Of a DNA stretch of 64,000 nucleotides, positions 3,387-63,786 are shown piece after piece. Position 1 is the stretch's first letter. Every line of letters starts with the position of its first letter. The position numbers and the translations under genes are program-made. Below the pieces are notes generated by a model that was not told the DNA's origin, did no database searches, and worked only from the letters and a program-made list of their open reading frames with translations. This DNA comes from Candidatus Magasanikiibacteriota bacterium (GTDB lineage Bacteria; Patescibacteriota; Patescibacteriia; Magasanikbacterales; GWA2-37-8): positions 407 to 64,406 of the forward strand of contig JBAYIZ010000006.1 of the NCBI GenBank assembly GCA_041665405.1, given 5' to 3'.

Positions 3387-3435
3387 ACCCCCAATAAAAA
3401 ATATATTAATGGTTTTAATTATATCAAATTTTAAT

Positions 3436-3469
3436 AAAAAAGAAAGCCTCTTATTTAAGAGGCTTTTTC
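3436..3469. terminator. bidirectional hairpin terminator
   Basis: GCCTCTT-attt-AAGAGGC is flanked by an A-run and a T-run. It overlaps the stop codon of the 3451..3900 ORF. Confidence 0.6.
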
Positions 3470-3900
3470 TTTAATTTTTTTAATATGTCCATCGGTTTTT
3501 CTTTGTGCAAATTTCCCAAATAAACACACTTTATTTTTTTAACAAGCACAGCTGGTAATGTTTTTTTAATATCCAACATGATTTCGGTTGGAGCAAACAA
3601 ATACACCGCACTAAATTTTTGTTCACCAGATATTTGTTTCACAAAGTCTTTAACCAAAACTAGAAAATCGCTATGTTTTGATCTCTTCATTTTTTCTATC
3701 TTTGAGCCAGATTCAAACACCAATGATCCACGTCTGCCAAAGTTTTCACGATCAGAATAATGGCTTTTTAATAAAGTGACCTGCCCCGCTTGCGCAATCT
3801 CTCCTTCGCTGGCGATATAAAAATTTGCCGCTTGAGTACCTGATACTACCAATAAGGCACTTTCATTTATAAACTGATGTAATTGTGCTGAAATTTTCAT
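3451..3900 (-). CDS. host-attachment-protein-like (eRF1-fold/Host_attach-like) small protein
   Basis: The 149-aa length and the C-terminal pattern VYLFAPTEIMLDIKKTLPAVLVKKIK...LHKEKPMDILKKL resemble my recollection of the Host_attach family (LVVVAPPRTLGELRK...DLTKHPVDEI). This is from memory only. Confidence 0.4.
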   Translation of the reverse strand: MKISAQLHQFINESALLVVSGTQAANFYIASEGEIAQAGQVTLLKSHYSDRENFGRRGSLVFESGSKIEKMKRSKHSDFLVLVKDFVKQISGEQKFSAVYLFAPTEIMLDIKKTLPAVLVKKIKCVYLGNLHKEKPMDILKKLKKKPLK

Positions 3901-3921
3901 ATAATCAATTCGAGATATGAA

Positions 3922-4905
3922 TTAATTTAATGGTTCAACTAATGGCATATCAGTATTGGCTGGTTTTGGTTTGTATAATTCCGGATCAATTTTGCGGTTA
4001 AAACAAGTACGTTCTGCTTGATGGCTCCAATTCTGGTTGAAGGAATCAAATGGCTTAGGATAGGCCGGAAGAGTGTTGAAATTATTATCACTCACTGTTA
4101 CAAAGTTAGCACACAACTCAAAATTATATTGATTAATAATGCGATATTCATAATCTAGTTTAGTTTGAGGATCGGTCGGTACCACAAAACCAGAGATGCT
4201 GTCGTTTAGCTGTATTACCTCTCCAGGCAATTCAGACTTTTGAGTCCAATAATTTAAAATCTGATTTTGTATTGTCTGCAAATCCTGTATGCGTTGTTCA
4301 TCAAAGCGGCGATTGCGTTGTTCAAATGGAGTGCCTACAACAAAAAATCCGGCCACTACACTTCCCAGCGCCAAAACCAATAAAATCCCTGCCAAAAGTT
4401 TTGGAACACGAGAAATTAATTCTTTGCGTTTCAAATCCCACATATAATATCCAAAGACTGCTCCCGCTACCAACAACACTATCAAAATCTTTAAAAAGAA
4501 ACGGGTAGTAATCTCACCGCTTAAGAAATTATAAACCAGAATAATCAAATCAACAATTATAGTAACTGCGGAAACAAAAAGTGTAAAATACACTAACCAT
4601 TTTCTTAATTTGAATTCGCGCTTTTCTGGATTAGCATATAAATCTTTGGCCAACAACCAGGCTGTTATCAAATATGCCGGCACCGCAATCAATAAAATAG
4701 ATGACGCCACCCGTACCGACTCGGCAATACCAGTATAATAATAATTCAATGCATCAGGAAATAGCGCATTGATATACTGAAGATACAATGTAATAAAACC
4801 AATAACACTCAAATAAAAAGTCAAAATGTTAAATAGGTGCAAAAACACATCTTTTGGTGTACTGCTCGCTTTTACGACACTCGGTTGCATGTTTGAGTTT
4901 TCCAT
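3922..4905 (-). CDS. polytopic membrane protein (DUF5671-like) with a C-terminal extracytoplasmic domain
   Basis: About 6 hydrophobic helices in the first 200 aa are followed by a soluble tail. This architecture is common in CPR genomes. Confidence 0.5.
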   Translation of the reverse strand: MENSNMQPSVVKASSTPKDVFLHLFNILTFYLSVIGFITLYLQYINALFPDALNYYYTGIAESVRVASSILLIAVPAYLITAWLLAKDLYANPEKREFKLRKWLVYFTLFVSAVTIIVDLIILVYNFLSGEITTRFFLKILIVLLVAGAVFGYYMWDLKRKELISRVPKLLAGILLVLALGSVVAGFFVVGTPFEQRNRRFDEQRIQDLQTIQNQILNYWTQKSELPGEVIQLNDSISGFVVPTDPQTKLDYEYRIINQYNFELCANFVTVSDNNFNTLPAYPKPFDSFNQNWSHQAERTCFNRKIDPELYKPKPANTDMPLVEPLN

Positions 4906-9554: not shown

Positions 9555-10769
9555 TTAAAAATTTATAAATTCTTTAAACCTATCTTCAAAAATAGCTTGC
9601 CGTGCCTGACGCATAAGCTCCAACATAAAATGCACATTATGGATGGTAGCCAAACGCAAACCAGTAATTTCTTGTGCTACAAATAAATGGTGTAAATAAG
9701 CGCGAGAATAATTTTTGCAAGTTGAACAAGCGCAGTCTTTACTAATTGGAGAAAAATCTTTGATAAACGCGGAGTTTTTTATATTCAAACGACGTTTCGG
9801 GTCCTCGGCAGTCGTAACAAACAACATACCGTGTCGAGCCAAACGAGTTGGTGCTACACAATCAAACATATCCGCACCACCAGCTACCACTTTGAGCAAA
9901 TCCTCTGGATCCAAACCGACACCCATAGTGTATCGTGGCTTATCTTTTGGTAATAATGGAGTAATCCAATCCAAAATATTTTTGGTAGCTTCCATGTTGT
10001 AGCCAATGCTTTCACCGCCAATTGCGATACCATCAAAATCTAAACTGGCAATATATTTAGCCGATTCTTTGCGCAGATCTTCATGATTGGCACCCTGAAT
10101 AATACCAAATAAAAATTGTTTGTATTCTTTCGGCACTGTCATCCCCGACTTGATCGGGGATCTATCATCACTAGATTCCCGCTTCTGCGGGAATGACAAA
10201 CGCTTATGTTCGTCCACACATCTTTTTGCCCAGCGATGAGTGCGATCCATAGCTTCCTTTGTATATTTATAATCTGCATCATCAGGGGTACATTCATCAA
10301 AAGCCATAATAATATCCGCACCAATCTTGTGTTGGCACAAAGTAGCGGACTCTGGTGTAAAACGATGAGTAGAGCCGTCAATATGAGATTGAAATGTCAC
10401 GCCGTCTTCATCTATTTTTACCAATTTACCTTGATCTTTGGTGTCGCTTTTTTCTTTTTGCAATCCTAATGAAAAAACCTGAAAACCACCAGAATCAGTC
10501 AAAATCGCCCGGTCCCAATTCATAAATTTGTGCAAACCACCAGATTGAGCAACCAAATCTTCACCCGGTCTCAAATGCAAATGATAGTTATTGGCCAAGA
10601 TAATTTTTGGGTCCAAAATAGCTAGGTCGTTTTGATCTAGGGTTTTAACTGTGGCCTGTGTGCCAACTGGCATAAAGACCGGAGTTTCAATATCTCCATG
10701 GTCGGTATGCAAAATACCGGCTCTGGCACCAGTTTTTTTATCTTCGTGGATTAGTTCAAAAAATGACAT
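9555..10769 (-). CDS. tgt: tRNA-guanine transglycosylase (queuine tRNA-ribosyltransferase) carrying a 20-aa in-frame repeat-derived insert
   Basis: Tgt hallmarks are present: TPVFMPVGT, LTDSGGFQV, and the zinc site CxCxxC...H (CACSTCKNYSRAYLHH). Confidence 0.93.
   Translation of the reverse strand: MSFFELIHEDKKTGARAGILHTDHGDIETPVFMPVGTQATVKTLDQNDLAILDPKIILANNYHLHLRPGEDLVAQSGGLHKFMNWDRAILTDSGGFQVFSLGLQKEKSDTKDQGKLVKIDEDGVTFQSHIDGSTHRFTPESATLCQHKIGADIIMAFDECTPDDADYKYTKEAMDRTHRWAKRCVDEHKRLSFPQKRESSDDRSPIKSGMTVPKEYKQFLFGIIQGANHEDLRKESAKYIASLDFDGIAIGGESIGYNMEATKNILDWITPLLPKDKPRYTMGVGLDPEDLLKVVAGGADMFDCVAPTRLARHGMLFVTTAEDPKRRLNIKNSAFIKDFSPISKDCACSTCKNYSRAYLHHLFVAQEITGLRLATIHNVHFMLELMRQARQAIFEDRFKEFINF
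10138..10197. repeat. double-hairpin palindromic mini-element (ATTCCCG family) inside tgt
   Basis: Sequence GTCATCCCCGActtgATCGGGGAT...ATTCCCGCttctGCGGGAATGAC is exactly 60 nt. On the minus strand it is translated as SFPQKRESSDDRSPIKSGMT. Confidence 0.8.
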
Positions 10770-11006
10770 ACTAATTATATTTAAGCCAATACTACGCTAT
10801 TTTGCACAAAAAATCAAGACAAACAAAAAACTTCCTATAAGAAGAAGTTTTTTCTATTCTCATGTCGTTAACAACAACAGGAAAATGGATGCCTGCTTTT
10901 TTGTACCGTGAGCGCAGGCGAATCTCACATATTTTCCTTGCGGCGACTAGCCACGCATTAATCACATGCGCAACTTATCAAGCCGAATTGTGTTGGTACG
11001 GCGCGA

Positions 11007-11420
11007 TCAGCGCGCCTTGGGGGCGGCTGCTTCTCGCAGTTCGGCCAGCTTCCTGTCTACCTTTGGGGTGCCGAGGTGTTGCTTGGCCGCGAACACGAGC
11101 TTTGCGCGGGCAGATTGCACCGCCCTGTTCGAAGGACGACGGCCGGGTGGAGTCAAAGCCACCACCGCCTGCAACATTGCCTCCGTCGTCTGCTCGTCAC
11201 CCTGCTTGTACTCCCTGAGCGTGAACAGGACCTTCTCCACCTTCTCGTGGAGATCCCAGGACTCGCGCCAATACGGCCTGTCTTCGCCGGAATGGAACTT
11301 GTCGAGCATGGAGTGAGCCCTCCTCGACCTGAAGTAGCAAAGGACCAACACAAGCATCGACACGATGTTCACCGCAACACTGATACTGTGCCACATAGAA
11401 ATCCCCACTTCCTTCACCAT
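11007..11420 (-). CDS. small single-pass membrane protein encoded in G+C-rich islet 1
   Basis: The frame has G/C-rich third positions. It has an N-terminal TM segment (ISMWHSISVAVNIVSMLVLVLCYF) and a helical charged tail. The start could be ATG 11420, or ATG 11396 (preceded by AAGGAAGTGG). The track start at 11486 is probably an over-extension. Confidence 0.5.
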   Translation of the reverse strand: MVKEVGISMWHSISVAVNIVSMLVLVLCYFRSRRAHSMLDKFHSGEDRPYWRESWDLHEKVEKVLFTLREYKQGDEQTTEAMLQAVVALTPPGRRPSNRAVQSARAKLVFAAKQHLGTPKVDRKLAELREAAAPKAR

Positions 11421-11571
11421 TGCTGACGAAGATGTTAGCTCTCTAGTTGGCGCGGGATGACACATCCACGCCCTTGCGACAAGCAAGCGGCAGCCCAGCT
11501 ACCTCTACTTTTTCCTTACCAAAAGAAAAACTAGCCGTAGCTTGGCCAAAATATATTTCAAAGAACGTGTA

Positions 11572-11600
11572 AATATAGCACAAAACAACAATTTTGTCAA
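11572..11600 (-). promoter_or_regulatory. sigma70-type promoter reading into G+C-rich islet 1
   Basis: Minus strand reads TTGACA-17 nt-TATATT (TTGACAaaattgttgttttgtgcTATATT). Confidence 0.6.
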
Positions 11601-11678
11601 CAATACTGAAATAATGCACCGCAAACATCCAGCGGCTTTTGATTTTCTCTTACAGGCATGTTAAAATGAAAACTCAAT

Positions 11679-13715
11679 ATGATAAATTTTGAACAAGAAC
11701 TCAACCCGCAACAGCTGGACGTCGTGAAAAATGGCGACGGGCCTTGTTTGGTTTTAGCTGGGGCGGGATCGGGGAAAACTCGCACTATTACTTATCGGGT
11801 TGCCTATTTGTTGGAACAAGGTGTTGGCCCAGAAAATATTTTGTTGGTAACTTTTACCAATCGAGCGGCGAATGAAATGATTGAACGGGTAAGAAATTTG
11901 ATGAGTGGGGATTCCCGTTTGCACGGGAATGACATGCCGTGGTCAGGAACATTTCACCACATTGCCAATAAAATTTTACGACACTACGCACCACATTTAG
12001 GATACAAAAATAATTTTACTGTTTTGGATTCCGACGACAGCCAGGCGTTGATAAAATTGTGTATCAAAGAATTTAAAACCACCGAAAAATTTCCTTCGGC
12101 GAAAGTTGTGGGCGCAATTATTAGTTTTGCTCGTAATTCTCAAAAAAGTATTGAAGAAGTAATTGAAGATAAATTTAATAGCTGGTGGCACCTGTCTAGA
12201 ACTATTGGCGATGTCAGCTCACGATACGAACAAAAGAAAAAAGAATCCAACGCAATGGATTTTGATGATCTACTAATTAATTTTGCATTGTTATTAAACA
12301 CCCCAGCAATTCAAGAAAAGTTTTCCAATCAATTCAAATATATTTTGGTAGATGAGTATCAAGACACCAACAAACTACAAGCGAATATTATTGATAAATT
12401 AGCCAAAATACACCGTAATTTGTTGGTAGTTGGTGATGACGCCCAAAGTATTTATTCTTTCCGTGCGGCTGATATAAAAAATATTTTAAATTTTGAAGAA
12501 AAATATTCTGATGCGAAAATTTTTCGTTTGGAAATAAATTATCGTTCTCACCAAGAAATTTTGTCTTTGGCCAATAATGTTATCGCCAACAATCGTCATC
12601 AATATCCAAAAAAATTAAAAGCAGTAAAAGAAAATGGCATAAAACCAAATTTATATCCAAAAAATGATCAATCCGACGAAGCGAGTTTTATTGTAAAAAA
12701 AATAAATGAACTGATTGAACAAGGAACTCCAGAACACAAAATCGCTGTGCTGTTTCGTGCCGCTCATCATTCTCAAATGCTCGAAATGGAATTAGCCAAA
12801 GCAGGAATCGCTTATGATTATCGTGGCGGTTTGCGATTTTTTGAACGCGCTCACATCAAAGATGTTTTGAGTTATCTCAGAATATTAAATAATTTATCTG
12901 ACACCTCTGCGTGGTTGCGTATTCTCCAACACGAAGAAGGAATCGGACCGTCGGCTGCCAATAAAATTATTTCTGCCGTGCAAAAACTAGAAAAAATTGA
13001 TGACATAAAAAATCTTGGGGAAGTTTTAGGTGGAAAAACCCAAACCGGTTTTAATAATTTCTTAAAAATTTTTAATGCTCTCTTGGAATCGTATATTCCA
13101 GAAAGCAGCCCTGGTGATTTAATCCAATCCATTATCAGTTCGAATTATAGCGACTATTTGGAAGCAGAATTCATAGATAGTGATGACCGAAAAAAGGATT
13201 TGGAACAAATGGCCACCTTTGCCACCAAACACAAAAATTTATCTGATTTTTTGGCCGAATCTAGTTTGCAAGAGTCGTTTGCCCACCCGACATCCAACCA
13301 AACACAGACAAACAACCAAAAAAGGTTGGTGCTTTCCACTATTCATCAGGCCAAAGGACTGGAGTGGGAAGCGGTTTTTATAATCAATGTAGCCAACGAC
13401 GCCTTTCCCAACAGTCGTGCTTTGGCCGAAAGTGAAGGTCTGGAAGAAGAACGCCGTTTGTTTTATGTCGCTATTACTCGTGCCAAAAAACACTTAATTT
13501 TGACTTATCCAATGTCAAATGAGGGTTGGGGCTCCTCGCTGGGCGGTCCAAGCTTGTTTTTGTCTGAAATTAGCCAAGATTTGATTGATGACCACTCATT
13601 ATTATCCTATAAAAGCACTGTTTTTGATAAAAATGAAGAAATTCAATATATTAACGAAGATGAACCAATAAATATCCAACCTGGTAGTTTTTTGCGCAGT
13701 ATTGATGACTTATAA
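11679..13715 (+). CDS. UvrD/PcrA/Rep-family ATP-dependent DNA helicase
   Basis: Walker A motif (AGAGSGKTRT), motif Ia (TFTNRAANEM), DEYQDT, motif VI (VAITRAKK). Confidence 0.92.
   Translation: MINFEQELNPQQLDVVKNGDGPCLVLAGAGSGKTRTITYRVAYLLEQGVGPENILLVTFTNRAANEMIERVRNLMSGDSRLHGNDMPWSGTFHHIANKILRHYAPHLGYKNNFTVLDSDDSQALIKLCIKEFKTTEKFPSAKVVGAIISFARNSQKSIEEVIEDKFNSWWHLSRTIGDVSSRYEQKKKESNAMDFDDLLINFALLLNTPAIQEKFSNQFKYILVDEYQDTNKLQANIIDKLAKIHRNLLVVGDDAQSIYSFRAADIKNILNFEEKYSDAKIFRLEINYRSHQEILSLANNVIANNRHQYPKKLKAVKENGIKPNLYPKNDQSDEASFIVKKINELIEQGTPEHKIAVLFRAAHHSQMLEMELAKAGIAYDYRGGLRFFERAHIKDVLSYLRILNNLSDTSAWLRILQHEEGIGPSAANKIISAVQKLEKIDDIKNLGEVLGGKTQTGFNNFLKIFNALLESYIPESSPGDLIQSIISSNYSDYLEAEFIDSDDRKKDLEQMATFATKHKNLSDFLAESSLQESFAHPTSNQTQTNNQKRLVLSTIHQAKGLEWEAVFIINVANDAFPNSRALAESEGLEEERRLFYVAITRAKKHLILTYPMSNEGWGSSLGGPSLFLSEISQDLIDDHSLLSYKSTVFDKNEEIQYINEDEPINIQPGSFLRSIDDL
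11911..11933. repeat. ATTCCCG palindromic mini-element inside the helicase gene
   Basis: ATTCCCGTttgcACGGGAATGAC, translated as (G)DSRLHGND between helicase motifs Ia and Ib. Confidence 0.7.
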
Positions 13716-23159: not shown

Positions 23160-23348
23160 CTCCACAAACAAAAACATCCCGACTAAATCGAGATGTTTTA
23201 TTTTTAAAGCGTTTATATCACTCGCACAATCTGAAAACAAATTTTATTTTCAAATTGCGCGGCGAGTGACATCTACCGCGTCTGCCCCACCGCCCGCTTG
23301 TAGCGAGTGGGGCTACGATGGCTAGTCTCTACAAATTAGCCCTTCCAT

Positions 23349-23822
23349 CTAGAAGGTGCCCGCCCCCAAGGCGAGTTGGACCTCCCATCCGAAGGAGTTC
23401 TTCTCCACGACGTCCTGTTGCCAGCCGACAGGGGCTTTCAGGAAAACGCGGGCACGCCACAGCTTCATACTGACCATCGGACCAGCCCCGTACAACAGCC
23501 CGTCGTTGCCCTTCTGTCCAGAAAGGACCCCGCCGAAGTTGAACGTGAGCCCATCAACGATCACGTCATAGGTGACGCCGTAGGCCATGCCGTAGCCCGA
23601 TACTTGGGTCGGAACCCAGAACTGGGCGAAGTGGGTCGTGTGACCATCCGGCTGGACCAAGTAGAGGCCCATGCCGATGTCGGTGCCGTCCTCAAACCCG
23701 GCGTGTTGCACGAACAGGCCGGCCCCACCAGTCTCCGGACCAGGACCCTCAGCCAGGGCGACTGAAGGAACTGCGAAAAGGACGACGCTCACGATGACGA
23801 AAAACCACGCGATGTGCTTCAT
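23349..23822 (-). CDS. secreted small beta-barrel-like (OMP-like) protein encoded in G+C-rich islet 2
   Basis: ATG 23822 is preceded by GGAG at 7 nt. Signal peptide is MKHIAWFFVIVSVVLFAVPSVALA|EG. It has Gly/aromatic-rich alternating strands and a C-terminal ...LALGAGTF. Third codon positions are G/C-rich. The track start at 23957 lies in the AT-rich leader and is probably spurious. Confidence 0.6.
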   Translation of the reverse strand: MKHIAWFFVIVSVVLFAVPSVALAEGPGPETGGAGLFVQHAGFEDGTDIGMGLYLVQPDGHTTHFAQFWVPTQVSGYGMAYGVTYDVIVDGLTFNFGGVLSGQKGNDGLLYGAGPMVSMKLWRARVFLKAPVGWQQDVVEKNSFGWEVQLALGAGTF

Positions 23823-23994
23823 GGATTTACTCCGAAAACTAGAGTTCATCGGTACCCAGCCGACACACCACGCGACAATCATTGTCGAGAGGTAAGGGTG
23901 ATTATTTATTCCTATATACATTAGAAATACATAATTTCCTTTACCTCTTTGAGACATTATTTATCCATTATAATTTAAAAAGAACTAACTGAAC

Positions 23995-24031: not shown

Positions 24032-24060
24032 TTGACAAACCCGCCTAAATATTATATTAT
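24032..24060 (+). promoter_or_regulatory. sigma70-type promoter of the rpsL-rpsG-fusA operon
   Basis: TTGACA-17 nt-TATTAT, about 150 nt upstream of rpsL. Confidence 0.65.
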
Positions 24061-44157: not shown

Positions 44158-44271
44158 ATATGTATGATTAAAAATACTTCGCAATATTATCTTAAAACAC
44201 AAAAAAAGTCAATTTTATGGCTGTGGTATTGCTTTTTTGAGGATGTTGGTGTATATTTTTTAAATCCACCC

Positions 44272-44529
44272 GTGGCCAGGTCGTGTTATATAGACACAGC
44301 CTCGGCGACTATAGCGAAAGAGGGGAAACCATGGCGCGAGCCAAACCGGCAACGGACACGTGTTGAGGTACATGTTCGATTCCAGTTCAACCTCAGGCCG
44401 CAACAACGGGCTGAGGAGGCCACGCAGAAGGCCAAGAAGTGGCAGAGGGACAACCCGGGCTGGGGCTGTGATCCCAACCCCACGACGATCGGCAACGGCT
44501 ACGCTACCTTCAGGGCTCGTCGCACCTGA
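44272..44529 (+). pseudogene. G+C-rich islet 3 ORF with unresolved start (possibly frameshifted or a gene fragment)
   Basis: G/C-rich third positions mark this frame from about 44380 to TGA 44527-29 (...QQRAEEATQKAKKWQRDNPGWGCDPNPTTIGNGYATFRARRT). The only SD+ATG (GAGGGG-N6-ATG 44331) is in another frame and stops after 11 codons. The in-frame candidates are GTG 44272, or the AT-rich extension at 44149. Confidence 0.3.
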
Positions 44530-44660
44530 CGACGATCAACCTCTTCGACGCACACCCCCAGTCGAGCACAAGTTGCTCCTGGGGGCGGGGCTTAGATGAA
44601 ATTATCCTTCCTGTCCTAAGTAGAAAAAATATTTTCTTTTTAGGACAAGGATAATTTCTT

Positions 44661-48339: not shown

Positions 48340-48437
48340 AACATCCCAGACAATGACTTTTTCGCTTTTTTCGACCGCGAGGTCGAAAGGATGAGCCTCG
48401 GCTCATAACCCGCTCAAAAGTAATTGTCTGGGATGTT
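48340..48437 (+). ncRNA. candidate structured RNA / terminator-embedded repeat, copy 3
   Basis: A 15-bp perfect outer stem (AACATCCCAGACAAT/ATTGTCTGGGATGTT) is followed by a T7 run. It encloses the core TTTTTCGCTTTTTTCGACCGCGAGGTCGAAAGGATGAGCCTCGGCTCATAACCCGCTCAAAAG. Confidence 0.55.
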
Positions 48438-48453
48438 TTTTTGTACCATAAAA

Positions 48454-48482
48454 TTGACTTTGTGTTTTTTATCAAGTAAAAT
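48454..48482 (+). promoter_or_regulatory. sigma70-type promoter reading into G+C-rich islet 4
   Basis: TTGACT-17 nt-TAAAAT. The composition switches to G+C-rich about 6 nt downstream. Confidence 0.6.
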
Positions 48483-48576
48483 ATTTTTGTGTCCCAAACG
48501 ACCGACGGTTCGCCGTTCGGTCACAACGACCACTTGCACCGCTCATCGGTGGTGGTCTCGAAAAGGAGAGAGAGCC

Positions 48577-48798
48577 ATGCGTGTGCTTCCCTCGATCCTG
48601 AACCAGAGCCGGAGACGGAGCGACAATTCCGCCGATTGCGGGCAGGTCGCGAGCTCCGAGGCCGACTTCATCCACAGGCAACTGCTCGAGCATGGCTTCT
48701 GCTCGGACATGAAGGAGGGCGCCGTCGGCACCGCCAACATGGTCGGCATCGTCTGTTCGACCGCGGCCGGCCGCGGAGCAGTAGTCCTCCTGGTGTAG
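48577..48798 (+). CDS. 73-aa protein of unknown function encoded in G+C-rich islet 4
   Basis: AAGGAG sits 8 nt before the ATG. By my codon-by-codon read, G/C at codon position 3 is very high in this frame only. Sequence: MRVLPSILNQSRRRSDNSADCGQVASSEADFIHRQLLEHGFCSDMKEGAVGTANMVGIVCSTAAGRGAVVLLV. Confidence 0.55.
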   Translation: MRVLPSILNQSRRRSDNSADCGQVASSEADFIHRQLLEHGFCSDMKEGAVGTANMVGIVCSTAAGRGAVVLLV

Positions 48799-48827
48799 GG
48801 CTCAGCTTCGTACGAGACAACCAGTGC

Positions 48828-48881
48828 GGCCGGACCGGGAGCTCCTTCGGGGGTTTCTGGTCCGGCCGTCGTTTCCTTTTT
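48828..48881 (+). terminator. GC-rich hairpin terminator after the islet 4 ORF
   Basis: GGCCGGACC...GGTCCGGCC (9 bp), followed by gtcgTTTCCTTTTTATT. Confidence 0.55.
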
Positions 48882-48962
48882 ATTATATTTAATACTCAAA
48901 GCGGGTATTTTTTTATTGCTCAAAAAAGGGTTTGCGTGTAAAATAAGAACGAATAATATTTT

Positions 48963-59948: not shown

Positions 59949-61118
59949 ATGCTGATAAAAGACCTCCAATCTATCGGTTTTACCAAGAATCTATCTGAGG
60001 TTTATTTGTCTTTAGCCCAATTGGGAGGCCAGGCCAAAGCTGGGGAAATCATCAAAAAGACAGGTTTACACCGAAATATCGTTTATATTTGTTTAGACAA
60101 ACTAATAGAAAAGCAATTATTAACTAAAACCGAAGAACGCGGTGTTACTATTTATAAAACACTAGATCCAGCCCGACTAATGAATGAAATTCGAGAAAAA
60201 GAACAATTAACAACAAATATTATTGAAGAAATTGAAGCATTAAAAAAGCATCCAGACACTCAAGAAATAATTGTCCACGAAGGTTTGGAAGGTTTTAGAA
60301 ATTTCAATCTCTATACTTTGAAAAAAATCGAAGAAGGTGGCACATTGCAAGTGCTTGGTTCCATTGGAGATAAATGGTTTGAATACATGGGTGAAGAAAA
60401 GTACAAAGAATATATAAAAATACAAAACAAGAAAAAAATTAAGTGGGAGATGATTACTTATTTTGATTCAAAACGCGACAAACAATTTATTAATGACTAT
60501 CCAGAATTATGCGAGGTAAAATTATTACCGCAGACATATGATAATCCGGCCAGCATTTATATTTTTGGAGATACAATTTCAATAAATATTTTTACCGAAC
60601 CATTTTCGGTGATTGAAATAAAAAATCGCGCGGTGGCGGATGTATATAGAAATTATTTTAGTTTGTTGTGGAACCAAGAAGTGTTTACCTATCGCGGTTG
60701 GGATGCGATTGATAAAATTTTGTGTGCGAATTTGGAAGATGGATTTACTTATGATGTTTTTGGGGCAACATATGGTGTGGGTACAAAAGAGGAACAAGAT
60801 CGCGTGTTGGAATTTTTTATGGAGAACCACAGAAAGACCGCACACTTTAAACCAAATAGACGATTGATATTTTTTGAACAAGATCGTGAGCAGGCGGCTA
60901 AAGAAGTTTCTCCGTTGGATGCAGACACTCGTAAAAATGTTCGTTTGCGTTTTCTGTCAGACAAATATTTTTCGCCGATGGAGACACATTTGTTTAAAGA
61001 TAAAGTAATTTTAATTTTTTCTTTTGGCGAACCAATCGCGACAGTTTATACCAATCCAAAAATAATTGAAGTTTACAAAAAACAATTTGAGTTGTGGTGG
61101 GGGATGTCGGTGGAATAA
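59949..61118 (+). CDS. TrmB-like wHTH regulator with a large C-terminal domain (paralog 2)
   Basis: N-terminus LQSIGFTKNLSEVYLSLAQLGGQAKAGEIIKKTGLHRNIVYICLDKLIEKQLL. It shares GLHRN(I/L)VY and (L/F)WNQE with paralog 3. Confidence 0.75.
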   Translation: MLIKDLQSIGFTKNLSEVYLSLAQLGGQAKAGEIIKKTGLHRNIVYICLDKLIEKQLLTKTEERGVTIYKTLDPARLMNEIREKEQLTTNIIEEIEALKKHPDTQEIIVHEGLEGFRNFNLYTLKKIEEGGTLQVLGSIGDKWFEYMGEEKYKEYIKIQNKKKIKWEMITYFDSKRDKQFINDYPELCEVKLLPQTYDNPASIYIFGDTISINIFTEPFSVIEIKNRAVADVYRNYFSLLWNQEVFTYRGWDAIDKILCANLEDGFTYDVFGATYGVGTKEEQDRVLEFFMENHRKTAHFKPNRRLIFFEQDREQAAKEVSPLDADTRKNVRLRFLSDKYFSPMETHLFKDKVILIFSFGEPIATVYTNPKIIEVYKKQFELWWGMSVE

Positions 61119-61128
61119 AATTTAAAAA

Positions 61129-61162
61129 CAAAAAACCGATTGCAGATTGCAGTCGGTTTTTT
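61129..61162 (+). terminator. conserved TrmB-module terminator (copy 2)
   Basis: AAAAAACCGATTGCagatTGCAGTCGGTTTTTTG. Confidence 0.8.
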
Positions 61163-61308
61163 GATAACTTCTTGAGCTCAACAAGATGTTGGAGTGAATG
61201 AGCGGTCACTACCAGCCGCGTGACTTTTTGTTTTACCGGTAGTCACAAACCGGATGATCCCAGACCCCTCATCAGCGGACCATTGAATTGTCCTGAAACT
61301 TTGCACCT

Positions 61309-61707
61309 CTACGCCTGTTCGCGACAGGGCAGGCATTCGTAGCCCACCCAAAGGCCGTTGGCAAAGGTGAAGTCGAAGTCCCAGCGGTTGTCACCACCGT
61401 ACCAGCAGAGGCTGGCAGTGTATTTGAATCCATTGGGGGCGAGAAGAGTGGTGCCAGTGAGCACGATCTTCTTCTTACGCATTTTCATCGGAATCTGGTC
61501 TTGGTGGTCAAGCAGTTGCTGGCCGTCACGCACTCCAAGGACGCCATTCCGACGACGTGCGCGTTCGCGCAATTCGGAGCCCTTGATGCATTCCTCGCCA
61601 CGCTTGAGGCACGACTCGATCCGGAGCTTGTTGATGTGAAGATCTGCAATTGGATCACAGTCTTCCACAACCTTAAACTCCACCCTGTTCCAAACGAATG
61701 TATTCAC
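61309..61707 (-). CDS. 132-aa cytoplasmic protein of unknown function encoded in G+C-rich islet 5
   Basis: The GTG start is preceded by AAGGAGG at 6 nt. The frame is open across the whole G+C-rich segment. No signal peptide and no family recognised. Confidence 0.6.
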   Translation of the reverse strand: MNTFVWNRVEFKVVEDCDPIADLHINKLRIESCLKRGEECIKGSELRERARRRNGVLGVRDGQQLLDHQDQIPMKMRKKKIVLTGTTLLAPNGFKYTASLCWYGGDNRWDFDFTFANGLWVGYECLPCREQA

Positions 61708-61918: not shown

Positions 61919-63031
61919 ATGTTAGAACAAAAACTAGAAAAACTTGGTTTTGGAAAAAACGAAGTGAAAGTATATCTAGCTCTTTTTGATTTGGGTAAAT
62001 GTAAAGCCAAACAAATCATTGATAACACAGGTCTTCATCGTAATCTTGTCTACACGGCACTTGATGATTTGATTGGAAAGAAATTAATTTCAAAAGTCGA
62101 GAGTAATGGAATTTTTTTATTTTGGGTTAATAGCCCTGAACTTTTGAACGAAATAATAGAAGAAAAAGCTATAACGGCAAAAGAAGTGATTGAACAATTA
62201 AAAAAGAAAAGCGCCAGTCAACCTCGTGAGATATTAATTTATGAAGGTGAAGAGGGTGTGAAGAAAAGTCGCACCAAAGTTTTAACATATGGAAAAGGAG
62301 ATACATTTTATATGTTAGGAACAAAAGCGAGTTTCTCGCCTTCGATGGAAAAATTTTCAAAGGAGTTTGATTCGCTAAGAATTAAAAAGGGAATTTATTC
62401 AAAAATTTTAGTCGAACATGATGTGAATAAAGATGAACTTAAACATCTTAATAAAATGCCACTTAGTGAAGCCAAGCACCTTCCTCTTGATTTGGAAATG
62501 CCTATTTGGTTTTCAGTTATTCAAGATTATTTGGAAATTGGCATCCCAGGCGTTGATCCACTGATTTTTTCGATAAAAAATAAAGCGGTGGCTGGGGCAA
62601 TAAAAAAATTTATAGATTTTTTCTGGAATCAAGAATCCGAAGTTGTTACAGGCGCAAAGGCTTTACAAGAGATTATGTTGGAATCCATTGATTATGGTGA
62701 GTTGAAAGGTATCGGCGCAAAAGGCAATTTTTTTGAAAATTATCCGGGATTTTTTAATGATATAAAAAAGCGAGCAGTAATGAAACAAGGACTGGTCTGG
62801 AGAAACATTGTTGATCCAAGTATGAAAGGGCATGAGATTACAAAATTTTTGTGGACTAAAACAAAATATAATTTATCCGATACAAAAAATCCCAATGTTG
62901 TTTGGTTGTATGGCCCGAAAGCTGTGATTATAAATTGGGCGGATAAAGAACCTGTGATGTTTGTTTCTACAAATAAGGCGCTAGTGCAAAGTTATAATGA
63001 TTATTTTGAGGAGATGTGGGGTAAAGATTAA
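61919..63031 (+). CDS. TrmB-like wHTH regulator with a large C-terminal domain (paralog 3)
   Basis: N-terminus MLEQKLEKLGFGKNEVKVYLALFDLGKCKAKQIIDNTGLHRNLVYTALDDLIGKKLI. Confidence 0.75.
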   Translation: MLEQKLEKLGFGKNEVKVYLALFDLGKCKAKQIIDNTGLHRNLVYTALDDLIGKKLISKVESNGIFLFWVNSPELLNEIIEEKAITAKEVIEQLKKKSASQPREILIYEGEEGVKKSRTKVLTYGKGDTFYMLGTKASFSPSMEKFSKEFDSLRIKKGIYSKILVEHDVNKDELKHLNKMPLSEAKHLPLDLEMPIWFSVIQDYLEIGIPGVDPLIFSIKNKAVAGAIKKFIDFFWNQESEVVTGAKALQEIMLESIDYGELKGIGAKGNFFENYPGFFNDIKKRAVMKQGLVWRNIVDPSMKGHEITKFLWTKTKYNLSDTKNPNVVWLYGPKAVIINWADKEPVMFVSTNKALVQSYNDYFEEMWGKD

Positions 63032-63041
63032 CACTAAGAAC

Positions 63042-63075
63042 AAAAAACCGATTGCGATATGCAGTCGGTTTTTTA
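63042..63075 (+). terminator. conserved TrmB-module terminator (copy 3)
   Basis: AAAAAACCGATTGCgataTGCAGTCGGTTTTTTA. Confidence 0.8.
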
Positions 63076-63168
63076 ATTACTTCTTGAACCAAAATGATTT
63101 AGTTCGAAAAGTAGCTGCGCGTCTTTTTGACCGGGACGCGCAACCGGGTGAGAGGGTGGAACCGGACG

Positions 63169-63660
63169 TCACAGGAATGCGATTCCCAGTGACGGCTGGA
63201 ACAGCAACGAGTAATCGCCGCCATCCAGGGTCTTCGCCAGTCCAAATGCCATGGACAGCGACAGACCGTTTCCGATTCCGTAGGCCAGGCCGGTGCCCAG
63301 ACCAACCAAGTCGGAAGACGGCTTGCCGCCGTAACCGACATTGCGCTGGTAGAGCACGCTGGCCTGGGTGGACCAACGATCAGTCAGTCCCAGCGACACA
63401 CCTGCAGAGAGGCGTGGGCTGGGCTTGCAACTGTCGTTGGGGGTGGCCAGCCCGATTCCGCCCGCGATGGACACCTTGTTGGAGACCTTCTCCGACAGCG
63501 AGATGTCGTAGCGGGTGGAGGCCGAGGCGGGGGTGAGCCCGTCCTTCAGGAGGACGACGTAGCCCTCCCGGATGTTGAAGACCGGGGTCAGGGCGCTGGC
63601 CGAAGCCGAGACACCGCTCAGAACCACGGCCACCAGGACGATCAGGGTGGAGATCTTCAT
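63169..63660 (-). CDS. secreted small beta-barrel-like (OMP-like) protein encoded in G+C-rich islet 6
   Basis: GAGGTG lies 4 nt before the ATG. Signal peptide is MKISTLIVLVAVVLSGVSASASA|L. The protein has Gly-rich alternating strands and a C-terminal ...QPSLGIAFL. Confidence 0.6.
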   Translation of the reverse strand: MKISTLIVLVAVVLSGVSASASALTPVFNIREGYVVLLKDGLTPASASTRYDISLSEKVSNKVSIAGGIGLATPNDSCKPSPRLSAGVSLGLTDRWSTQASVLYQRNVGYGGKPSSDLVGLGTGLAYGIGNGLSLSMAFGLAKTLDGGDYSLLFQPSLGIAFL

Positions 63661-63736
63661 GGGACACCTCTGCAGACCAGAAGGCCTGCCATCTGCATTA
63701 GTCAGTCAGGTTGCATTTGCGAACCCATACTGCTTT

Positions 63737-63786
63737 TGCCAGACGAAATAGTTCACAATAGATCTTATGGACTATTTCGTCTGGCA
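63737..63786 (-). promoter_or_regulatory. 16-bp perfect hairpin in the 5' leader of the islet 6 gene
   Basis: TGCCAGACGAAATAGT-N18-ACTATTTCGTCTGGCA lies between the promoter (63829-57) and the ATG (63660). No T-run follows it. Confidence 0.5.

Follow-up and report, generated by a model that had tools for sequence, protein, structure and literature searches.

Morons, typified by gene 15 of HK97 and by lom and bor of lambda, are defined by their location in phage genomes (PMC3594210). Here we describe a unit of comparable layout in a bacterial chromosome, namely "islet 1", a segment rich in guanine and cytosine (GC) located between tgt and a UvrD-type helicase gene in a 64-kb stretch of DNA (hereafter the window) from contig JBAYIZ010000006.1 of a low-GC member of Candidatus (Ca.) Magasanikbacteria. 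An earlier note on the window, prepared from the sequence alone, had placed at this position a GC-rich islet with a gene for a single-pass membrane protein, and the contrast in composition is clear, with 57% GC in the segment 10941-11541 versus 38% in the window as a whole. Our results suggest that islet 1 is probably a laterally acquired, self-contained, moron-like single-gene unit. For laterally acquired genes an amelioration model has reportedly been proposed by Lawrence and Ochman, and flexible genomic islands are said to have been described by Rodriguez-Valera and colleagues.

Comparison of islet 1 with morons reveals several points of similarity. It appears to be one gene, equipped with a promoter and a terminator of its own, between genes that are adjacent in relatives, its GC content differs from that of the flanks and six relatives possess an empty site, and its predicted product is a small membrane protein, as is HK97 gp15; in addition, a sibling among the six GC-rich islets of the window (islet 6) shares, according to its structural model, the fold class of lambda Lom (the Ail/OmpX-type barrel). 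However, islet 1 is found in a cellular chromosome between housekeeping genes and not in a prophage, with no phage genes nearby, i.e. it lacks the location in a phage genome that defines a moron, and it has no similarity to any PHROG family. The annotation contains no phage, integrase, transposase or recombinase genes within 10 kb on either side of islet 1. A gene with a weak match to LAGLIDADG_3 (homing-endonuclease-like; L001, 21108-21215) is located on the same contig, at or just outside the left end of the window and about 10 kb from islet 1.

Islet 1 fits a known kind of element, namely laterally acquired ORFan islets (carrying an orphan open reading frame, ORF) at a replacement-type variable locus. 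The shared features are atypical composition and codon usage, patchy presence, conserved flanks, different cargo at one conserved locus and the lack of homologs, as well as an amelioration that can be measured in the sibling islet 6. Unlike other elements of this kind, islet 1 is very small (one gene) and has a very strong GC contrast, such islets are unusually frequent (six in 64 kb), and their host-type promoters stand back-to-back with promoters of the host. No identifiable donor or homolog was found in any of the protein and DNA collections searched. Integron cassettes resemble islet 1 in that they are compact single-ORF units of foreign composition and often ORFans, but islet 1 has its own promoter and does not belong to an array; this candidate was rejected because a repeat search revealed only short hairpins and no attC-like imperfect palindrome at the 3' end, and no integrase is present within 10 kb on either side. 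A known Rfam RNA family was rejected as well, as no gathering score was reached. Type I toxin-antitoxin systems and other small hydrophobic toxins share with islet 1 the small membrane-anchored product, the long structured leader and the stand-alone intergenic position, but the product of islet 1 is far longer (129-137 amino acids (aa), with a large soluble tail), and neither an antisense promoter nor an antisense RNA was detected.

Relatives of the locus were collected by a metagenome scan with the helicase protein, which yielded 22 loci (28-95% identity), 13 of which retain the divergent tgt-helicase pair; a contig scan that used the tgt protein was uninformative, as it retrieved distant Firmicutes-like tgt genes without any close relative among them. 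In six relatives (L083, L086, L087, L088, L089, L096) the start codons of tgt and of the helicase gene are separated by only 64-74 bp, and the spacer of these empty sites reads ...TTTAAGCTAATTCTATGCCATTTTGCGCAAAAAATCAAG followed immediately by GTGTGTTAAAATGAAAATTCAAT. Because of these six empty sites, the junction alignment delimits a lineage-specific insert of about 836 bp (approximately 10819-11654, with no strand assigned): on the left, the conserved block of the tgt promoter (...AAAAAATCAAG) adjoins the border between 10818 and 10819, and on the right, the conserved block with the helicase -10 (GGCATGTTAAAATG...) begins at 11655. The empty sites strengthen the idea of an islet. The insert is wider than the extent of 10900-11610 assigned to it earlier: it exceeds the GC-rich core (approximately 10907-11500) on the left by about 90 bp of AT-rich DNA, which includes the predicted terminator, and on the right by about 150 bp of such DNA, which includes the predicted islet promoter and a new helicase -35. 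The borders of the islet do not coincide with the change in GC content, and the AT-rich promoter and terminator sequence came with the insert.

Both junctions touch promoters of the host. The left one is located one base past the -35 (TTGATT, 10817-10812) of a putative tgt promoter (TTGATT-17-TAGTAT, 10789-10817, minus strand), which is conserved in all relatives and matches the consensus at 8 of 12 positions, i.e. below the threshold of our promoter scan. The right one immediately precedes the conserved -10 of the predicted helicase promoter (TTGATT-17-TAAAAT, 11639-11667, plus strand), whose -35 lies in inserted DNA. In the empty sites of L083, L086, L087, L089 and L096 the tgt and helicase promoters overlap within the 64-74 bp. 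On our reading, the insert would part these overlapping promoters and substitute the lost -35 of the helicase gene. Neither terminal inverted repeats nor a target-site duplication were detected at 10819/11654 by repeat search and junction alignment, and no second copy of the insert was found in the window or in the related loci; a transposon or a miniature inverted-repeat transposable element was rejected on these grounds. Transposition seems less likely than either recombination within the conserved flanks or an illegitimate insertion on which selection then acted.

The slot between tgt and helicase is variable, because three relatives (L084, L085, L099) hold unrelated inserts in the same spacer. 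L084 possesses about 495 bp of DNA with approximately 50% GC at the same junction, with a minus-strand ORF of 99 aa, a TTGACA-17-TATGAT promoter and a GC hairpin, i.e. the layout of islet 1 with an unrelated protein. It was rejected as a homolog of islet 1: the ORFs are unrelated, and the only stretches that align are promoter-like or terminator-like (33 nt, 79% identity, E 0.02), which may reflect convergence on the consensus. L085 has about 1370 bp of low-GC DNA at the same junction, with three plus-strand ORFs. In L099, the closest relative (87-89% nucleotide identity in both flanking genes), nucleotide homology to the window ends at 10818 and restarts at 11679, with no similarity in between; its spacer contains a low-GC plus-strand ORF of about 185 aa (3408-4000), which is fused to or overlaps the helicase start codon just downstream of the helicase promoter. 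A weakly similar plus-strand ORF of about 185 aa precedes the helicase gene in the more distant L090, L092 and L094, and this fast-evolving ORF has no match in Pfam. The ancestral occupant of the slot may have been this low-GC ORF, or alternatively the spacer may have been empty. Whichever state was ancestral, the comparison of loci indicates that islet 1 is specific to the lineage of the window and that the locus repeatedly swaps its cargo.

A similar case was observed at a neighboring position. The close relative L097 contains a GC-rich islet (1141-1486) between the helicase gene and a response-regulator gene, with a minus-strand ORF for a membrane protein of 88 aa with two helices and a GC hairpin (CCCCCGAC...GTCGGGGG), and the window has just 108 bp at that place. 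This case shows that islets are gained and lost between near relatives.

The signals predicted within the insert are those of a complete transcription unit. The earlier note had described a minus-strand promoter TTGACA-17-TATATT at 11572-11600, back-to-back with the promoter of the helicase gene, and our consensus scan finds exactly this site, a sigma-70-type promoter with a TG extension that matches the consensus at 11 of 12 positions. The scan returned two sites versus 0.6 expected. The islet and helicase promoters are placed back-to-back at a distance of 38 bp, and no plus-strand promoter was detected within islet 1. The -10 of the helicase promoter precedes its ATG by about 11 nt, which implies a nearly leaderless mRNA; a visible Shine-Dalgarno motif is found neither at tgt nor at the helicase gene, and is present at several islet ORFs. 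Downstream of the islet promoter, a long 5' leader (11421-11565, minus strand) is predicted to be structured, with a long hairpin at the AT/GC boundary (11490-11548); its fold has a z-score of -3.7, and none of 200 shuffled sequences was as stable. The stop codon is located, as noticed before, in the loop of a hairpin, GGCGCG-CTGAT-CGCGCC (11000-11016, minus strand), as seen both in the sequence and in its predicted fold; about 2% of shuffled sequences place a fixed codon within a perfect 6-bp hairpin, and the hairpin of islet 1 lacks a U-tract and is not a terminator on its own. It is followed by a 3' untranslated region (3' UTR) with predicted structure (10854-11006, minus strand), which contains TTTTTTGTACC (10897-10907). 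Just upstream of the tgt -35 comes a predicted intrinsic terminator (10825-10853, minus strand), and its hairpin AAAAAACTTC...GAAGTTTTTT has T-runs on both strands. The arms of the terminator form an inverted repeat with 100% complementarity, a 12-bp stem is seen in the minimum free energy fold of the 3' UTR, and the fold of 10815-11020 has a z-score of -3.5. At the level of consensus matches, islet 1 thus appears as a single gene flanked by its own promoter and terminator.

The gene itself is represented by the minus-strand ORF at 11007-11420 (137 aa, or 129 aa from ATG 11396), identified by a frame test and by gene callers. Its frame is open up to 11498, with other possible starts at TTG 11486 and ATG 11396, and ends with TGA at 11009-11007. 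A codon model trained on the ORFs of four other clear islets assigns it a score of +17.2 bits, versus -0.6 to -112 bits for the five other frames, and outperforms the host codon model on this ORF by 102 bits. The GC content at third codon positions (GC3) is 0.77, versus 0.34 in tgt and in the helicase gene, and the GC contents of the three positions, 0.58/0.47/0.74, follow the order GC3>GC1>GC2 in this frame alone. Such an order is usual for a coding frame from a GC-rich genome. Because no other frame has a positive codon-model score or shows the GC3>GC1>GC2 pattern, the frame chosen in the earlier note stands as the correct one, and the GC3/frame check yields no better rival.

The encoded protein contains one hydrophobic segment. 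Its mean Kyte-Doolittle hydropathy over 19 residues has a maximum of 2.27 at residues 12-30 and exceeds 1.6 solely for windows starting at residues 7-15; the predicted transmembrane segment (residues 12-30; 11331-11387, minus strand) is directly followed by RSRR and lies within the helix 4-43 of the AlphaFold2 model. The model, calculated from the single sequence, is all-helical (helices 4-43, 48-70, 76-89, 99-116 and 118-132), with a mean predicted local distance difference test (pLDDT) score of 71.6, and the tail contains 21 Lys/Arg and 14 Asp/Glu residues. The two predictions agree with the previous description of one N-terminal transmembrane helix and a charged helical tail, and the product looks like a single-pass (bitopic) membrane protein. 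The topology would be N-out/C-in, with the basic tail (four helices, about 100 residues) on the cytoplasmic side, because RSRR after the helix conforms to the positive-inside rule.

The product of islet 1 is an ORFan, with no homolog among approximately 15 billion proteins. Only identical copies from the same organism were retrieved by a word-indexed search of 5.8 billion clusters and by phmmer against 1.84 billion representatives; Pfam, NCBIfam, PHROGs, PADLOC and the sequences of the PDB contain no match, nor do IMG/VR, phage and plasmid records, whether searched by DNA or by protein, and a Foldseek comparison of the model with the PDB gave nothing better than E=1.

Together, these features allow us to propose the following scenario for a laterally acquired unit. 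About 836 bp of foreign DNA would have been added to, or swapped into, the 64-74 bp spacer between tgt and helicase. Along the minus strand, the resulting unit would open with a strong promoter of the extended -10 type, continue with about 150 nt of structured leader and a GC-rich ORF (129-137 codons) whose stop codon is covered by the GC hairpin, and close with a structured 3' UTR and an intrinsic terminator placed before the tgt promoter. Transcription would start about 7 nt past the -10 (near 11565) and end at the hairpin 10825-10853. The insert would also provide the new -35 of the helicase promoter, and therefore both housekeeping genes would stay expressed. The protein would be anchored by its N-terminal helix, with a short N-terminus outside and the basic four-helix tail inside the cell.

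Several observations weigh against this scenario, in which the gene of islet 1 would be expressed and useful. No diverged homolog of the ORF, in which selection might show, was found among the collections searched, and all copies found are identical. The donor lineage was not identified in these collections either, an unexpected gap if the transfer was recent and came from well-sampled high-GC bacteria, and the source of the AT-rich ends of the insert, which carry the promoter and the terminator, was found neither in the window nor in the relatives. The start codon is ambiguous: the JGI, NCBI and Logan gene callers all select the frame of the ORF, with four variants of its start (137, 129, 100 and 152 aa), and the ENA caller predicts no gene at islet 1. 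No clear Shine-Dalgarno or other ribosome-binding motif precedes ATG 11420; ATG 11396, the start of the 129-aa form, is preceded by AAGGAAGTGGGG.

The strongest alternative is that islet 1 is a neutral fragment of GC-rich foreign DNA captured by illegitimate recombination (e.g. after uptake), with an inactive ORF that is a relic or an accident. The lack of homologs, and with it of diverged copies that would reveal selection, the omission of the ORF by one gene caller and the missing ribosome-binding site at ATG 11420 are all compatible with such an origin. So is the tendency of GC-rich DNA to keep reading frames open; the earlier note had counted at least five overlapping ORFs on both strands, and we find seven frames open for at least 71 codons, with stop triplets depleted to 26 versus 38 +/- 5. 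However, the ORF is complete and correctly oriented, behind a promoter with 11 of 12 consensus positions and ahead of a terminator, its frame shows coding periodicity, and an open frame of 163 codons arises in only 3.6% of composition-matched shuffles. Moreover, the sibling islet 6 is clearly under purifying selection. We regard a neutral fragment as unlikely, though it survives better than the other alternatives.

The evidence from islet 6 comes from an ortholog in the related contig L105 (643-1128), found at a syntenic place with 78% identity and a ratio of nonsynonymous to synonymous substitution rates (dN/dS) of 0.23. At third codon positions, 35 sites have G/C in the window and A/T in L105, versus 9 with the reverse, and GC3 is 0.82 versus 0.65. 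Islet 6 thus appears to be a selected gene of GC-rich origin that drifts toward the composition of the host. The foreign origin of the islet class is supported because of this purifying selection and this drift to the AT-rich host composition. The ORF of islet 6 (63169-63660, minus strand) encodes a signal peptide and, in the model, eight beta strands, and Foldseek relates this model to the Ail, NspA, OmpX and OmpA barrels (E about 6e-5, template modeling score 0.55-0.59). The phylum Patescibacteria is regarded as monoderm (PMC12102498). Islet 6 would, according to the model, code for an Ail/OmpX-like 8-stranded barrel, i.e. a fold of the diderm outer membrane in a Candidate Phyla Radiation (CPR) genome.

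The six GC-rich islets of the window are located at 10941-11541, 23221-23881, 44261-44621, 48481-48901, 61181-61661 and 63081-63741. Each contains one small ORF with coding-type GC periodicity, the six share no sequence among themselves, and a hydrophobic membrane-spanning or signal-type segment is present in 5 of the 8 islet ORFs examined. Islets 1, 2, 5 and 6 are alike in that they have a minus-strand ORF and a TTGACA-type promoter with a TG extension, which stands back-to-back, at 30-60 bp, with the promoter of the host gene that follows on the plus strand. Taken together, the siblings support the view that islet 1 is a member of a turnover-prone set of foreign single genes, of which at least some are functional.

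The ORF of islet 2 (23349-23822, minus strand; 157 aa) is predicted to encode a beta-rich protein with a signal peptide and a C-terminal Phe, which may be another barrel similar to outer-membrane proteins (OMPs). Its promoter (24023-23995, minus strand) is back-to-back with that of the next gene (24032-24060), and its stop codon is likewise found within a hairpin (23341-23356). Islets 2 and 6 are ORFans, for which no homologs were found beyond this lineage. Islet 3 contains a basic ORF of about 55 aa with an uncertain start. Islet 4, adjoining tRNA-Cys, has an ORF of 73 aa with a C-terminal hydrophobic segment, a plus-strand promoter (48454-48482) and a 20-bp GC terminator (48826-48869), and islet 5 has a Cys-rich ORF of 132 aa with a good Shine-Dalgarno motif; Pfam, PHROG and PADLOC matches were found for none of islets 3, 4 and 5.

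A bidirectional terminator of 54 nt, near-identical in its two copies (61123-61175 and 63035-63087; 91% identity), precedes islets 5 and 6, one copy each, and each of these islets is in turn followed by a similar plus-strand gene start; this arrangement is a repeated module (genes 59949-61118, 61919-63031 and from about 63960). L105 has a TrmB-family gene that corresponds to the gene 59949-61118. The ortholog of islet 6 in L105 occupies the place that islet 5 has in the window, which suggests a duplication or an insertion in the lineage of the window.

A structured non-coding RNA (ncRNA) gene with an incidental ORF is a much weaker alternative to a laterally acquired protein-coding unit. GC-rich RNAs are conspicuous in AT-rich genomes, both untranslated ends of the unit fold better than shuffled sequences, and a promoter and a terminator are present. 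Nevertheless, no Rfam family reaches its gathering threshold (the best sub-threshold hit, Phe_leader, which overlaps the terminator, scores 28.7 bits versus a cut-off of 55), the core is periodic over three bases and translates into a protein-like sequence that includes a transmembrane helix, and the segment is missing from relatives, unlike conserved RNAs, which makes this explanation very improbable.

Slightly less probable still is a site-specific mobile cassette with a border or attachment motif in common with islet 4. This idea derives from the observation in the earlier note of an 11-mer at the left edges of islets 1 and 4. The recurrence itself is real, with coordinates displaced by one base: TTTTTTGTACC occurs exactly twice in the window (10897-10907 and 48437-48447), both times to the left of a GC-rich core, and when one mismatch is permitted, 13 sites are found versus 4.7 expected. 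However, 3368 distinct 11-mers are present two or more times in the window, 95% of random sets of twelve AT-rich zones of 120 nt share an 11-mer (3.4 pairs on average), and four of the six islets lack the motif. Moreover, in islet 1 it lies about 80 bp inside the left border defined by the empty sites, the islet 4 copy forms the T-tail of a terminator hairpin, and, as stated above, terminal repeats, target duplications and, within 10 kb, a recombinase gene are lacking. The recurrence of the 11-mer is a coincidence at the level of chance and not a border signal.

That a different frame, or the plus strand, contains the real gene is scarcely plausible: three open frames exist on the plus strand (154, 121 and 105 codons), but they score -28, -0.6 and -112 bits versus +17 for the ORF, their positional GC mirrors that of an antisense strand, the translations of the alternative frames have no match in Pfam, and no plus-strand promoter was detected inside the islet. 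An assembly chimera of high-GC reads with a low-GC contig, which the sharp jump in composition in a metagenome assembly might suggest, can practically be dismissed: other assemblies supply a JGI contig (1053 bp) and a Logan contig (1563 bp) that span both junctions with 100% identity to the window, the three separate assemblies (the ENA MEGAHIT contig of 97.6 kb, JGI and Logan) agree exactly there, the NCBI metagenome-assembled genome encodes the identical protein, and relatives carry analogous islets. Because the other assemblies are identical over both junctions, islet 1 is a genuine, non-chimeric sequence. Exact-protein look-ups of the helicase and of the ORF variants, aimed at presence or absence at the strain level, returned the same context only.

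With regard to the genomic neighborhood, islet 1 is flanked by tgt (9555-10769, minus strand) and the UvrD-type helicase gene (11679-13715, plus strand), and the surrounding genes encode a glycosyltransferase, tryptophanyl-tRNA synthetase, a response regulator and components of type IV pili.

The function of a laterally acquired islet 1 can be addressed only by analogy. Small inner-membrane proteins encoded by morons, e.g. HK97 gp15 and P22 SieA, block the entry of phage DNA (PMC3594210). The protein of islet 1 could conceivably be a strain-specific accessory factor at the cytoplasmic face of the membrane that acts, for instance, by blocking the entry of phage or foreign DNA, a suggestion that we consider doubtful. 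More tentative yet is a broader view, according to which the lineage repeatedly captures small GC-rich genes, the likely source being a high-GC diderm host or its phages, perhaps through its own DNA-uptake machinery, and installs them as single-gene units beside its own promoters, about one per 10 kb, with a bias toward cargo of the cell envelope. Islet 1 would then be part of a captured interaction toolkit, in which the cargo comprises a single-pass anchor (islet 1) and OmpX/Ail-like barrels (islets 2 and 6). Because a monoderm cell has no outer membrane of its own for them, the barrels may be delivered to the envelope of the host or serve the contact between epibiont and host.

Taken alone, islet 1 is one more laterally acquired orphan gene. 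Its value is that the empty sites of relatives define the insert to the base, and that it shows a foreign gene slotted between overlapping divergent promoters with, as proposed above, neither of them silenced. More unusual, and offered here as a lead, is the density of GC-rich, envelope-biased single-gene islets (six in 64 kb), including OMP-like barrels, in a CPR genome; our literature searches retrieved no account of GC-rich islets with a single gene in the genomes of CPR bacteria. Should the class prove real and general among CPR bacteria, it would provide a cheap route to strain-specific envelope genes that probably govern interactions with hosts or phages.

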